Shown here piece after piece: positions 35,901 to 41,900 of a stretch of DNA of 64,000 nt (the stretch's first letter is position 1; every line of letters starts with the position of its first letter). The stretch is from an uncultured Trueperaceae bacterium. Its GTDB lineage: Bacteria; Deinococcota; Deinococci; Deinococcales; Trueperaceae. Made by a program: the position numbers. The DNA lies in contig CAWFFU010000011.1 of assembly GCA_963815215.1 (NCBI GenBank), positions 320,001 through 384,000 on the forward strand. The letters are read 5' to 3'.

Positions 35901-38900
35901 ACGCGACATCTTCGACGAACGGACGACGTGACCGCGCGGTAGGATGGCGCCCGGTGAAGCGTTTCCTCTCCGTTGCGTAGCATTGCCCTTGCCCTCGTTG
36001 CCATGGCCGTGCTGGGCGTTCTGACGTTGGCGTCGGCTCAGACCTTGACCGTCGAGGCGCCGCCGGGGAGGCTGGCGCAACCGGGGGACTACGTGACGCT
36101 GGTGTTCCTGGTCCGGAGCGCGTCGGACATGACGGCTGGCCTGGACGCAAGGTCCTCGCACGGTTGGCAGCTCCTGGGACCGACCTCGACCGTGACGCTC
36201 TCCGCAGGCTCGACCCAACCTGTGGCCGTCACGGTCGGCCGTCCCTCCGACCGCCGTCGGCGGGCGACGCCCGACGAGGTGACGCTGACGGCGGTCGGCG
36301 GCGGCCAGCAGGCGTCGGCATCGTTCGGAGATCGAGGTCGCGCAACACCTGGATCTTCAGCTCCAAGCCCCCGCTCAGGTCGTCGTCGGAGGATCCCTGA
36401 ACGTCACGGTCACGAACGCCGGGAATGTGACGACGGGGGCGACCGTGAGCGCCAGCGTCGACGGCCAGCCGGTCGGCTCAAAGGACGTCACGGTGCAGCC
36501 CGGCAAGCAGGTGACGCTCAGCTTCCCCGTGAGCCAGGAGGGGCGGTATCAGGTCCGGCTGCTGCGCAACGACAAGGTCGTGGCCGTGCGGTTCGTCGAC
36601 ACCGTGGTGAACGGTCTTCCAAAGCCCGCCACGTTCACCCTCTCGGGGACCGCGTCCGCCAACCTCGACACCGACGGGATGTGGGGGGCCTCCGTCGACG
36701 TCAAGGGCGCGCTGTCCGACGAAGCGAGTCTCGACGCCAGCGTCCGAGCCGACGCCCCACTGCGGAGTTACGTCGCGCTCCAGTCCACGTCGGTCAGAGC
36801 ACGCCTCGGCGATATGGCGAACGATCCTCTCGGACTGCCGCCGTTGCAGGGCTTCGGCATGTCGGCGATGGTCGCGCCCGGTAGCTACGCTCTCGAGGGC
36901 AGCGCAGCCTGGCTGGAGGGACCTCGGTACGCGGGGCGGTTCGAGCTCGGCTACCGCCGCGCCGCGCAGGACCTCAGCCTCGTGGGCGGTCTGGGGATGA
37001 CGGCAGGCAAGGTCGCGGCTGCCGCCCGGATGAGCGGTACGTTCGATCACGGAAGTGCTGTCGTGCGCGGAAGCTACGACGGGCAGAGCGTCACCGCGAG
37101 CTACCAGATGCAGGCCAGGGACTCCACCGGCAACTATTCCGTCGGCGTGATCCTCAGCGACGCCCTCACCGACTACGGGCGGCTCGACCTCAGCGCGAAT
37201 TACGTCGCGGGCCACACGGCCGCCTTCGCTGTCGGCACCGTACCCCTCGGTGTACAGGCGGCGGGGATGGCACAGGTCGGTGGGGAGATGCGCCTCGCAT
37301 CGGTCGATTCCGGAAGCCTCAGCGCGGCAGCGGCCCTAGGCGACGTCGAGTCGTACGCCCGGGTCTCCTTCGACCCGAGCCCGCGACAGAGCGTTCGCCC
37401 TTCTGCTTCCGCCGGCGTCGTCTATCAACCCCAGGATCTCGGCTGGGGTGTCGCCTTCGACGCCCGCCTCGGGTTGGGAAGCACATCCGGCGCCCACGCC
37501 GGCTGGTCGTCGTCGGCCGAGCTTCGGGGACGCTACTTCCCCGGATCCGACGCCATCCGCGGACGGCTGAGCCTCCGCACCCTCGGGAACCTCGCCCCGG
37601 CGACCGTGTTCGGTTCTGCAGGGTGGGACCTCGGAACGGGGACCGTGAGCGTGGGCACCGGAACCATCTTGACTACCGGACCGTGGACCTTCCAACTGAA
37701 TGCCGGGGGACAGTATGCGCCTGCGTCCACGTATGCGTGGAGCGCTCAGCTCGGGCTCCACGCACGTTGGGCGTTCGACCTGCCCGTGCCCGAAGCGGTC
37801 GTCCAGGCGGCCGGGGGACGACGGCTCGGTACCGTGGTCGTCCAGGTGTCGGCCGATGGGGAGCCTGTGGCGGGAGTCCCCATCGCCGTCGGTCGCTACC
37901 GCATCCAGTCCGATGCAAGCGGTAGCGTCACGCTGCGTCTGCCGCCCGGGCGCCGGACCGTCTCGGTCGCCCTCCAAACGCTCGCCGCGAACATGCAGCT
38001 CGTAGGCCCGGGCTCGCGGACCGTGGAGATCCAGAACGGAACGACGATCCACGTCGAGTTCCGGCTTCGGCGAACGGCCGCGGTCGAGGGACGCGTGTTG
38101 AGCGACGCCAACGGTGACGGGGCCGCGGACACACCCGAGCGCGCCGTCGCCGCGACGATCCTCGTGCAGGACGCGGGTGGCCAGAGCCAGGTCGTCCACA
38201 CGCGCCCGGATGGCACGTTCGTGGTTCGCGGGCTTCCGAAGGGGCAGACACGCGTCGAGGTCGTCGAGACACCACCCGGTTCCGCAGTCGTGGGCAAGAC
38301 GGAACAACGACTGACACTCTCGGCAGGTGGCACGAGCACCGTCCAGTTCCTCGTGCAGCCGGCAGCGGCGAGAGCGACTACCTTCGGCGGCGGCGGCCTG
38401 ACCGTCCGCGACATCCGGCCGGAGGTCGATGCCGCCCCTCCCGGCAGCGCTCCGCTCGTCACCATCACCACGACGGGTCGACCGGACCGGGTCGATATCG
38501 ACGTCGGCGGCCACACCCTCGAGGCGCAACGCGGACCCGACGGAGCGTGGACCGCGCGCATCCAGGTGCCCCCTGGTGCCGCCGGCGTCGTCACGTTCCG
38601 CGTGCGCGCCGTGCGTGGTGGATCCACCGTGTCGCGCAGCAGCCAGCTCGTCGTGAGCGGCGATGTCCCCCTGGTTTCGATCGAGCCCATACCCCCCCTG
38701 AGGGCAGGCGCCACCGCGACGCTGACCGTTCACGTCCTCTTCGCCGCGACCTCCGTCACGTCCCGACTCGGCGGCGAAGCGACCGTGCCCATGACCGAGA
38801 CGTCGCCCGGACGGTGGACCGCCCAGATCAGGGCCCCGGAAACGAGCGATCAGGCCGAGGTACCGTTGCGCATCACGGCCCTCCGCGGTGGCGGCGAGAG

Positions 38901-41900
38901 CACCGTGCTATCGAAGACGCTGCGCGTGCTGCCGCGCTGAACGAGCCCTCGGAGGCAGCTGGCGCCCAGGGTCCGACCCCATCGCGTGCGGACGCGCACG
39001 GATGCGGCGCACGCTGTTCCCGCATGTGCCGTTCCCGCCCCACCGCTACGTGGAAGCGGGCGTGCTGCGCCGGGGGATGCGCGCCGCGATCCTAGGGTGA
39101 CGTAACCGAGTAGGTGACGACAGCGTTGTAGCTCCCTGCCGTCTCGCCGCCGGTGATGCCGAGCGCGAAGTCGTCGGGGACGATGACGGTCGCGAAGCTG
39201 CCGCCCGTGCCGGGCCCCGTCGCAACGATGCTGGCACCGGCGCCGAGCGCAACGCCCCTCACGCGCACGGCTCCGGCCGTGCCTGCAGACCCGGACCCGC
39301 TCCAGGTCAGGGTTGCCGTCATCGTGTAGGGCGAGGCAGACAGGACATCGACCGACGTGAGCGTCGTGCCCTGGGCCGTCGGGGGCAGGGTGCCGCCGAT
39401 CGCGGAGTAGTACGCCAGCGGGGTCGTTGGCGTAGTCGAAGGCCACCGTGTCGCCGCCCGAGAGCGCGCGCCACGACGCGGCGGCATGATGACCCGGATC
39501 GTGTTGGTGACGGAGTTGGCGCCGATCAGCGTGTACGTCACGGTCACGGTGTAGGTACCCGGCGCCACGGCCACCGGTCAGGTGCAGCAAGTAGTGACAT
39601 CCACCCCGCCGTCCTGAAGCGCCAACCCCAGTTGGCGTCGAACACCGTCTGTTGCGAGGTTGAGAGCATGACCTCGGGGACCGCCCCGTGCGTCGTCGAC
39701 GCTGTAGTCGGCGATGAGCTCGAACGGCACCGGGATGTTGCTCGCCACCACGACGCGCACGTTCCCCCAGGCCTGGATGGTGAAGTTGATGGAATCCGAG
39801 CTCGGGTCCGGCGCGATCCGGCCCGGATCGTTGCCGGTCGACGCGCTCGTACACCTGCTGCGCCGTCGGGCTGGAAAATGACCGTGCCGATGTCTCTGCG
39901 CAAGCGTGAGGCCGGCGAGTGCCGAGCGGCCACAGTTCGCGAGTACGACCTCGGACCGACGTCAGCACCGATGCCTCAGTTCCTCAACTGGAAGGGAAGC
40001 TGCCCTGCGAGCGAGCCTCCTCGAGAGTCCTCGATCAGTGCGAGGGCAACGTAGTAGCCGGGGGCAAGATCCTTCGGCAAGGCCAGGTCGATCTCGCCTC
40101 GCTCTCTCGCATGACGGGCTTGTCCTGAACGGGGAGCGTCGCCACTGTCTTGCCCGTGGCGTCGCGGAACTCGACCTGGCCCGCTGGCGCGCATCAAGGT
40201 GTTGCCTTGGTTGTTAACGACCACCTTCAGAGTTTTCCCGTCGAGATACATGTCGCTCAGGGTCGACCCGGTGGTGGCCGTCCCCGCGATCGTCACGTAG
40301 ACGATCAGTCCGAGCCGCTGGCGCGTGACGAACTGCGCGCCCGGCCCGCTGCTCGCCTGGGCTCGGTCTGCGAAGAAAACCACGCTCTGGTAGGTGCCAG
40401 CCAGGCTGCGGTCGTTGGGCACGTGCGACGGTGATGCGGACCGTGGTCTGTGCTGCCGGGGGCAACGCAGACGTGCTCACGCTGGGCGTCGATCCAGCTC
40501 GTCGCGCTATGGGGCGCCGATCCCGCGGGCAGGAACCTCAGCTTCCCGTCGCTCGCCTGCACCCAGTCCCCGATGCTCACGGTCAGCGGGACGCTGGTTC
40601 GCGGAGGTGCTGAAGACCGTGACCTCGGCACTCGTCGTGCCGCCCGGAGGAACGGTGAGCGGAGATGCGTGCAGGGGACAGCCCGATGTCCGCCGCGAGT
40701 GCGGCGGACATCGTGGTCAGGAGGGCGAGGAGTGGGCGACGCTGGCGAGGAGAGCGCGGGACGTTCGCATCGGTCTACTGCGCCGTCAGGGTGTAGATGA
40801 TGTCGTAGGTGTAGGTCGCCCGGCGCTGAGCGTGCCGTCGAGCGTCAGAGGTCAGTCACTGCTCGTGAAGACGAGCGCAGTCTTGCCCCGCGTCGACGTG
40901 CAGCGCGTAGTAGCCGTCGAAGGCGTCGCGCCACCGATCGAGATGGACGCGCTCAGGACGCTGGGATCGGAGCGCCGTCGTGGAGTTGCCGCTTTGCCGT
41001 CGCGCCACGGTGAAGTCGGCGCCGCCGGTCGTTGGTGAAGGCGCTGAACTCCTGGAAGCCATTCCCCAGCCGGACTGATCGTCGAGGGGCTCGCGCTGAC
41101 GGCGTTGTAGAGTCGGAGTCCGCCGGGCTCGAAGGTGAGTCGTCGTCGCCGCTCGTCGCCGATGATGTGCAGCGCAACGACGGTTGGCAGGGTGATGATC
41201 AGCTGGTGTTGCTGTCGGCTTGGGCCGTGCCGCCAGGCCGCCGTCGGACGTCTGCGCCGAAGGCTGCGCCGCCGAGGAGCGGCGGCGACGGTGAGGATGA
41301 GTCGGTGAAACAGTGCCTTTTTCATGTCTTTCCCTCCGGAATGAAACTTCGGCCGGTCGCGCTACTAGCTCCACCTGTCCCAAGCGCCCGAATACAGGAT
41401 CAGGTTTCATCGCTTCCGAAGGGATCCCCACCAGCTCGATTTGGTGGGGGGTTCGTAAGACTGACTGGAGCCTAGCCAGGGCGGACTTACAGAACTCTTA
41501 GTCGGAGCGCTGTTTGTGGAGTCTTTAACGCGTCCTGGACGGGTTTGTTGGAAATTCCACAGAATCCGGCTCGCCCCGGCCTCTTCGGATGAGCACCAGA
41601 GATGCTGTCCTGCACGAAGCTCCGCCTTCGTCGGCGCCACCGCGACGAGAACAGGTCGTCCGTCGGACGCGCCGGTCCCCGAAAGCGCGGCGCCGCACAG
41701 CCTAAGCACAACCCGAGCGCACCCCGGGCCTAGCGCCGGCATAGCGCCGCCGATCCCGCGCCCACCGTGCGCCCACCCCTTTGGCCACGCCTTCGCCACC
41801 CCTCCCCCACCCCGCGCCTACACTGAGAGCATGGATGATGGGCCCGAAGCCACACCCCGCGGCGACACCCCGACGACCACCCCGACGACCGCCCCGCCAT

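Follow-up and report, generated by a model that had tools for sequence, protein, structure and literature searches.

The closest described systems are chaperone-usher and related donor-strand pili and the surface regulons of c-di-GMP riboswitches. Archaic chaperone-usher systems, whose pilins carry an invariant cysteine pair, have already been noted in Deinococcus-Thermus (PMC4654587), and known ushers are described as 24-stranded barrels with a plug (PMC13721041). TLP-1 fibrils are orphan donor-strand filaments (PMC11494351), while the Pam pili have chaperones similar to chaperone-usher components and pilins described as CPR-specific (PMC13278184). On the regulatory side, class II c-di-GMP switches turn on pili and adhesins in Clostridioides difficile (PMC11477304), tandem class II switches are known ahead of surface proteins (PMC9481103), and tandem c-di-GMP riboswitches are enriched in Deinococcota (PMC12452182).

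We analysed a 64,000-nucleotide stretch (the window) from an uncultured Trueperaceae bacterium, G000, and on balance think it probable that it encodes a pilus of a divergent chaperone-usher type, with c-di-GMP switching on the supply of its subunits. This reading builds on observed sequence, layout, covariation and distribution together with structural models. It joins a regulatory logic that is not itself new, c-di-GMP turning on adhesion, to a new form of chaperone-usher pili.

The riboswitch that the survey's finding placed ahead of a pilin-chaperone-pilin operon is real, as is the operon itself; the switch matches RF01786 over its full length (positions 1-84) at 41343..41426 on the minus strand, with 65 bits (cut-off 53.5, E 2.9e-12). 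Behind it on the same strand lie a major pilin of about 190 aa (40775..41325, low end approximate), read in six frames and intact in its G001 orthologue; a periplasmic chaperone-like protein of about 256 aa (39976..40772, start approximate), recognised by the chaperone profile; and a second pilin of about 290-320 aa (39092..39970, start approximate), with 48.6% identity to its G022 orthologue. The survey had also counted a large pilus-type gene in this operon. That gene, which encodes the usher-like protein described below (about 35973..38940, start approximate), instead follows pheA on the plus strand and faces the end of the operon; being convergent and on the opposite strand, it is not led by the riboswitch. 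The flanks are conserved in synteny. On the left, just upstream of the usher-like gene, is pheA (prephenate dehydratase; 35023..35871, plus strand; NCBIfam PRK11898, over cut-off), and on the right an S4-domain YaaA-like gene (41845..42135, plus strand; TIGR02988, E 3.7e-15, under cut-off) diverges from the riboswitch. The convergent layout is common to G001, G004, G005, G021, G022 and G120. A scan of 35800-41900 found no sigma-70 promoter and no intrinsic terminator.

All seven G000 aptamers exceed the cut-off of RF03169 (c-di-GMP-II-GAG), so the bases rather than the score decide the assignment. With residue numbers of PDB 3Q3Z, transferred by motif, the window aptamer has C37 (41390), G69 (41358), A70 (41357) and G73 (41354), matching the RF03169 consensus of C and GA-CCG at the variant positions. 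Complementarity of the pseudoknot is kept, with loop GCGC pairing GCGC. The canonical U37/A69 of RF01786, including the ligand-reading A69, is absent, and these two covarying positions separate this aptamer from the other six in G000, all U37/A69. Of the 55 genus aptamers, 6 have C37/G69, and five of these stand at the pilus locus. Judged by these bases, the window aptamer is non-canonical and of the c-di-GMP-II-GAG type, which it resembles at all four positions and in a score over the cut-off (59.3 bits, cut-off 40); unlike that family, it scores higher with the parent model and keeps G40-C68. The GAG pattern was found in 159 of 364 genomes, and the GAG form leads pilus operons of this kind in three families. 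In family f2 it has nearly displaced AAG (88 vs 4 of 125). At the orthologous f4 loci RF03169 is the best Rfam match. Weinberg et al. (2017, PNAS) reportedly left the ligand of the GAG variant open, and its supplements may already include these RNAs together with the genes next to them; the pilus and riboswitch finding did not turn up in the literature listings searched.

Computed folds suggest how the aptamer could act. In the ligand-free fold, the 5' arm of P1 (41415..41424, minus strand) pairs as an anti-Shine-Dalgarno strand with the Shine-Dalgarno arm (41331..41340, minus strand), just 5' of the pilin start codon at 41325, with a pairing probability of 0.95-1.0 for the latter arm; when P1 is enforced, its GGAG is paired at only 0.00-0.01. 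The core helix pairs in 20 of 20 distinct leaders, with compensatory changes across the family, and the outer five pairs form in 75 of 100 cells, where shuffled leaders average 60 and 0 of 5000 get as far; in these statistics the related leaders are not independent. Of 26 leaders, 3 lack the anchor of this helix, and none is evident in the three leaders from f4. In a model that includes neither pseudoknot nor ligand, the OFF fold is favoured over the P1 fold by 11.6 kcal/mol, and fold z-scores of the leader are not significant (-0.28 and 0.22 for the window), as expected because of the pseudoknot. From folds and covariation, the conserved helix points to a switch that turns translation ON, a direction that the survey had left open: in the unbound state the 5' arm of P1 would sequester the pilin ribosome-binding site, and ligand binding would hold P1, free the site and allow the pilin to be made.

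The survey's proposal of a second donor-strand pilus is supported by protein models, which were built from intact G001 orthologues, the window copies being frameshifted. The major pilin has a signal peptide and an N-terminal donor strand, and cysteine is absent from 17 of 17 homologues. Its model leaves a confident N-terminal stretch unpaired and shows the incomplete Ig fold with N-terminal donor strand expected of a chaperone-usher subunit. The best fold matches in VIA are donor-strand filaments, namely TLP-1b (Z 6.3, rmsd 4.7, 139 aligned), CS17 (5.5), CfaB (5.3) and CupE (5.2), all with Z below 8, the range that the tool calls common; Foldseek gave no match at E 0.001 or better. Three pilin copies modelled together score 0.70 against 0.00 for the best control, with contact agreement of at least 90% and partner pLDDT of at least 85. 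In a calibration of two-copy models, 20 of 30 solved homo-pairs came up to this mark, as did 1 of 23 single chains, and likeness of the pilin to solved pili may help it. In the modelled polymer, residues 24-37 of one copy lie beside strands 38-42 and 183-191 of its neighbour. The second pilin holds two pilin-like repeats, aligns with the major pilins and may be a minor or tip subunit; its G001 orthologue has a weak NCBIfam Pam pilin match (E 8.7e-5, under cut-off). The chaperone profile matches four pieces in the window as well as the C12 paralogue, and a profile of 19 sequences aligns to EcpB over 183 columns (probability 73.9%, E 2.8e-5), against 2.4% for FimC; PapD_N matched 0 of 19 chaperones. 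PDB sequence searches with the pilin or chaperone profiles gave no match, nor did the pilin profiles match the f2 pilin-like genes, which are so called solely for their position, signal peptide and size. The Atlas has no structural model, and its clusters are unnamed or repeat-domain only. The pilins would be exported via Sec, folded by the EcpB-like chaperone and polymerised by donor-strand exchange, as modelled.

The large protein, which the survey took for a pilus protein, is predicted to be an outer-membrane usher-like barrel rather than a subunit, from the AlphaFold model of the G001 orthologue (mean pLDDT 93.7, pTM 0.63) and fold searches. The survey correctly called it a paralogue of C12:75566-78607: a profile built on 11 close homologues gives E 4e-39, and pairwise BLASTP finds 26% identity over 388 aa (E 6e-13). 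Single-sequence searches missed this kinship, which only the profile and pairwise BLASTP showed. The model runs through two Ig domains, a 26-strand barrel, two transthyretin-like domains and two further Ig domains. As in ushers, an N-terminal domain and two C-terminal beta-sandwich domains flank the predicted barrel, and full-length FimD aligns over 220-790, the barrel plus both C-terminal domains. FimD also takes Foldseek ranks 1-3 (E 1e-14 to 1e-13), with low TM-scores (0.22). The modelled barrel departs from the 24-strand usher barrel with its inserted plug: the DSSP strand list gives 26 strands, the longest loop is 13 aa and the barrel region spans 359-422 aa in 74 homologues. The absence of an inserted plug was judged from strand list, loop and region lengths; barrel closure is presumed, and an Ig domain could sit in the lumen. 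Pfam Usher (PF00577) has no match in G000 or in the four full-length homologues or paralogues scanned, and sequence profiles fail to link the protein to EcpC (11%) or FimD (3.8%). We consider an usher-like protein without a plug inserted in its barrel somewhat probable. A role as assembly pore is suggested by constant co-location with chaperone and pilins, and the convergent gene would then encode an outer-membrane pore expressed separately, from the pheA side.

The survey's wider surface regulon is supported, with corrections. G000 has seven Rfam matches, the single one at the pilus operon and three tandems (C11:288378/288573, C8:287590/287747 and C3:1070163/1070351), and all nine genus mates carry 2-10. 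The C11 tandem precedes a GH26 protein (PF02156, E 9.5e-11), the C8 tandem a Big_7 and beta-helix protein (PF13229, E 9.9e-11) and the C3 tandem an orphan pilin-like gene; these canonical tandem aptamers may control all three. GH26 recurs after the riboswitch, in six of the nine genus mates by sequence likeness rather than the five relatives first counted. Exopolysaccharide clusters surround the riboswitch targets in relatives, as seen by eye (G003:C147, G004:C15, G008:C13, G009:C162), but not those of G000. A surface regulon is borne out by the secreted targets, a theme that is partly in print already; the window aptamer being a GAG variant, however, the seven sites are not simply one identical sensor.

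Two other readings of the protein genes were weighed. Instead of an assembly pore, the large protein might be a separate adhesin or anchor in the outer membrane, bearing Ig stalks, and the pilins might polymerise extracellularly in the way of TasA or WxL-type fibres. Consistent with this are the missing plug and Pfam match, the SdrD_B and CarboxypepD_reg repeats, which are typical of adhesins, and MtrB, not an usher, as best VIA match (Z 19.7, against 15.1 for FimD and 14.7 for PapC), along with transcription apart from the pilin operon here, weak WxLIP matches in 7 of 19 chaperones and assignment of the pilin to a WxL cluster at 0.89. Yet the gene stays beside chaperone and pilins phylum-wide and in both orientations, and a chaperone adjoins it in 17 of the 20 loci fetched around usher-like matches (two of the three without one in the fetched stretch reach a contig end). 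In f2, moreover, there is a short form that stops once the two transthyretin-like domains are complete; it belongs to an operon in the usher order, pilin-chaperone-barrel (4 of 6 fetched loci with an intact ORF). With the FimD alignment over barrel and both C-terminal domains, these points make a separate adhesin decidedly improbable. Alternatively, the locus could be a decaying pseudogene cluster with a relic riboswitch. As the survey had noted, the operon is frameshifted in this assembly: all three of its genes have frame changes, the usher-like gene has one near 36315-36331, and a control of 91 genes over 87 kb has none; the G004, G005 and G022 copies are broken too. Against decay, contigs from 4 of 4 independent runs have indels relative to the window at 39465-39478, and in two X1 contigs the second pilin shows 4 and 8 gap positions, whereas pieces that cover the large gene show 0 differences (run contigs being mostly at depth below 5 and singly weak). 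The intact G001 locus, moreover, has the same aptamer core. We regard the frameshifts as probably assembly errors and decay as quite improbable. Contig depth falls over the pilus cassette in 4 of 4 runs, an observation given no weight as evidence.

The remaining alternative leaves the divergent chaperone-usher-type pilus unchanged and concerns its signal: the GAG aptamer would respond to a different dinucleotide, be it 3',3'-cGAMP, c-di-AMP or one not yet known, setting the pilus apart from the c-di-GMP regulon and making mixed tandems two-input gates. Rfam lists GAG as a separate family, G000 carries a DAC gene, both aptamer forms coexist in one genome, GAG being the one retained ahead of the pilus genes (at 10 of 16 convergent loci, in two families), and in G030 a GAG-then-AAG tandem precedes GH26. 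However, the same locus has canonical AAG in 2 of 16 cases (G031 and G033) and a C37/A69 mismatch in 1 of 16, and GAG and AAG targets are alike in kind, being secreted surface proteins. The 22 GGDEF matches in G000 all have Asp at what we take to be the specificity site. A Hypr-type (cGAMP synthase) pattern, built on what we assume to be the motif, matched 0 of 364 genomes; it had no true-positive control, and its Asp version recovers 16 of the 22 GGDEF matches. A SMODS search of G000 found none. The sugar edge of the base at position 69 reads the ligand, and this position contacts the ligand's upper base, so that G69 alters a reading base; 3',3'-cGAMP is bound by a related aptamer at 11 nM, its adenine occupying that site (PMC13715770). 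From the hydrogen bonds described there, G69 would point its additional amine at O6 of a guanine ligand, which would favour c-di-GMP. An early idea of G69 as a cGAMP sensor was downgraded on the missing synthase signature and the AAG at the same locus. A different ligand appears unlikely; from sequence, the window aptamer most likely still binds c-di-GMP, with C37-G69 in place of U37-A69 probably altering affinity or selectivity.

Of 201 phylum genomes, 96 carry the usher-like family. Outer-membrane sealing by ushers depends centrally on the plug, so a true plugless pore must be gated another way. If real, a widespread barrel of this kind bears on the gating and origin of the pathway, and Deinococcota, a deep-branching diderm phylum with cultivable genera, hold an undescribed chaperone-usher branch. 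For the GAG riboswitch, these data add hundreds of representatives, a target that recurs and a predicted mechanism of switching, which makes its ligand cheap to test. That the phylum has a plugless 26-strand usher and that, in three families, a GAG switch for a non-c-di-GMP signal also controls the pilin is, taken together, quite doubtful.

Compared with known systems, the locus shares with the alternative and archaic chaperone-usher pili (ECP, CFA/I-CS1, Csu, CupE) the pilin-chaperone-outer-membrane-barrel gene set, a modelled donor-strand pilin fold and a chaperone that aligns to EcpB. It differs from them in a barrel gene that is convergent in this lineage, from known ushers in the predicted 26 strands, lack of an inserted plug and of a Pfam Usher match, and extra Ig domains, and from archaic (sigma) pilins in major pilins without the invariant cysteines. 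TLP-1b is the top VIA match of the pilin, but Z 6.3 and 12% identity fail to show kinship, and the Pam match of the second pilin is under cut-off; the available portions of PMC11494351 and PMC13278184 name neither a barrel protein nor a riboswitch. With the C. difficile RF01786 regulon the locus shares the aptamer fold and, as predicted here, ON control of pili and adhesins. It is set apart by C37-G69 for U37-A69, by predicted translational anti-Shine-Dalgarno control, and by a target that is a donor-strand pilus rather than a type IV pilus.

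The c-di-GMP-II aptamer is the sole Rfam RNA in the window and lies on the minus strand (41343-41426) of a 3.3-Mb, 70% GC genome. A signal-peptide gene encoding the major pilin starts at 41325, 17 bases past the aptamer end. Three frameshifted genes on the minus strand (pilin, chaperone and second pilin) extend down to 39092; their counterparts in a relative, G001, are intact at 194, 256 and 318 aa. The large gene, an 837-aa open reading frame behind pheA (36427-38940), has its N-terminus in another frame beginning at about 35973. The survey's finding placed this gene in the riboswitch-led operon; since it is read from the plus strand, convergently with the operon, the riboswitch leads only the pilin, chaperone and second pilin. 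The claimed paralogy with the gene on contig C12 is true, though distant. The reported frameshifts are also present in the assembly; frame changes cluster at the locus against none in 91 control genes (a coarse test). Contigs from four of four independent runs show indel differences in the second pilin. This favours assembly error, although most of these contigs are of low depth and G004, G005 and G022 are likewise broken at the locus. An X5 contig agrees with the major pilin (40712-41319) at both ends and not in the middle, as would fit a pilin allele that varies while its ends are conserved.

The G001 pilin model has an unpaired N-terminal stretch, and its closest structural matches are donor-strand filaments, every score being modest. 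Three copies were modelled head-to-tail, so that residues 24-37 complete the subunit that follows. The score was 0.70 against at best 0.00 for three controls; 20 of 30 solved homo-pairs attain this mark, as does 1 of 23 single chains, in a calibration that used two copies and where resemblance to solved pili can help. The chaperone profile (19 sequences) aligns with EcpB over 183 columns (73.9% probability) and not with FimC, and Pfam finds no PapD in the chaperones. For the large protein, the G001 orthologue modelled from an 80-sequence alignment (pLDDT 93.7) begins with two Ig domains and continues with an unbroken series of 26 strands (223-598), followed by a pair of transthyretin-like domains and a second pair of Ig domains. 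Foldseek ranks FimD top, and VIA ranks MtrB, then FimD and PapC, with full FimD aligned across the barrel and both domains after it. The barrel is predicted to lack an inserted plug because its longest loop is of 13 residues and the barrel region measures 359-422 aa in 74 homologues. Pfam Usher has zero matches in the genome, EcpC and FimD are out of reach of the large-protein profiles, and the protein is outside PF00577. On present evidence, it is predicted to work like an usher.

Of 201 phylum genomes sampled, 96 carry the usher-like family, with all five families (f1-f5) represented, and a chaperone adjoins the gene in 17 of 20 loci examined around its matches. Family f1 is taken to be Trueperaceae, since one homologue bears that label and the closest Atlas clusters belong to Deinococcota; f2 is guessed to be Deinococcaceae and f4 a thermophilic family. 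Three layouts are found: convergent and riboswitch-led (f1, f4); co-oriented and long with no riboswitch match (C12 is an example); and co-oriented and short with a riboswitch in front (f2). At least 13 of 42 listed f2 loci have a GAG match 1.4-3.2 kb upstream, and the order pilin-like, chaperone, barrel holds in four of six f2 loci examined.

The window aptamer carries C37/G69/A70/G73 (PDB 3Q3Z numbering), the bases of the Rfam c-di-GMP-II-GAG consensus. This form accounts for 6 of 55 genus aptamers, five at the pilus locus, and U37/A69/A70/G73 for 42; the rest comprise three with C70, three deviating at position 73 in the alignment used, and one C37 with A69. Across the phylum, a GAG pattern occurs in 159 of 364 genomes (f1 32/127, f2 88/125, f3 8/68, f4 23/23, f5 7/19) and an AAG pattern in 161 (f1 109/127, f2 4/125, f3 32/68, f4 14/23, f5 1/19). 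The 16 convergent loci examined comprise 10 GAG, 2 AAG, 1 C37/A69 mismatch, 2 without a match and 1 broken by a contig end. C37/A69 intermediates are seen at L151:10595-10679 (G030:C83), leading an orthologous pilus operon, and at G005:C7:55011. C70 replaces A70, the base stacked between the ligand guanines, in the first C3-type tandem aptamer (G000:C3:1070163 (L003), G001:C40:2760, G009:C109:3267; also G031, G033 and G285); this recurring 'ACG' form may be weak or specialised. A GAG-then-AAG tandem precedes a GH26-like lipoprotein in G030:C9 (L114:1585-1785), where relatives have AAG-AAG, and offers a natural test case for GAG/AAG equivalence or a two-input gate.

Recognition of the upper guanine in c-di-GMP runs through the sugar edge of A69 (PMC13715770). 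A ligand other than c-di-GMP for the GAG form is a minority prospect, perhaps one chance in four or five. In the genome, 22 GGDEF matches were found, each bearing the canonical Asp. Identical GGDEF and HD-GYP genes on paired small contigs (C1/C5, C1/C9, C6/C14) suggest a duplicated assembly, so the 22 overcount genes. There is one DAC gene and no SMODS, and what we take to be the Hypr-type motif, a pattern lacking a true-positive control, matched in none of 364 phylum genomes. We regard c-di-GMP as the likely ligand.

In the computed ligand-free fold, ten bases (41415-41424) pair with the Shine-Dalgarno arm (41331-41340), and GGAG is released once P1 is enforced. This anchor is present in 23 of 26 f1 GAG leaders (20 distinct); five core pairs are kept in all 20 distinct leaders, and the outer pairs covary. 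These features predict that ligand binding would activate pilin translation. Two observations count against such an ON switch: a model without pseudoknot or ligand favours the OFF fold by 11.6 kcal/mol, and f4 leaders show no evident sign of the helix.

In the wider regulon, the genome has seven Rfam aptamers, all nine genus mates have 2-10 each, a GH26 protein follows the C11 tandem, an Ig and beta-helix protein follows the C8 tandem, and GH26-like genes follow riboswitches in six of nine mates. The proposed exopolysaccharide context was seen by eye in four relatives and not in the source genome. A tandem also precedes a C3-type single pilin-like gene in all nine mates. The C3 gene is probably a displaced pilus subunit, as a C3-type gene adjoins the pilus operon in three f4 genomes and in G031, G033 and G120. 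About 2.5 kb away from the C3 tandem is a GGDEF gene, syntenic across the genus (L037:8954-9916, G000:C3:1072956-1073930). The GAG form also precedes genes for pentapeptide-repeat and Big_5 lipoproteins, for a receiver-domain protein and for further secreted proteins. In several genera of f1, acidic pentapeptide-repeat lipoproteins have the GAG riboswitch and the same anti-Shine-Dalgarno helix upstream (L085-L087, L093-L097, L103, L105, L106), and in f2 GAG often targets a conserved secreted protein of some 170 aa (L170, L175, L178, L180, L183, L184, L186, L191, L194). Another secreted family follows single canonical aptamers in three mates (L058:9520-10020, L060:1798-2346, L063:2-478).

Overall, the survey's observation is real and the locus richer than described there: it is predicted to encode a divergent chaperone-usher-type system with a plugless barrel, controlled through a GAG riboswitch variant; every functional statement on pilus, pore and riboswitch is a prediction. 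The literature search, which key subscription papers lay outside, found no account of this pilus system or of GAG targets. Tandem c-di-GMP riboswitch enrichment in Deinococcota and archaic chaperone-usher genes in the phylum are already reported in PMC12452182 and PMC4654587, respectively. The regulatory logic resembles that of the C. difficile class II switches (PMC11477304). In known ushers the barrel has 24 strands and contains a plug (PMC13721041), whereas the large protein has 26 predicted strands and is predicted to be plugless.
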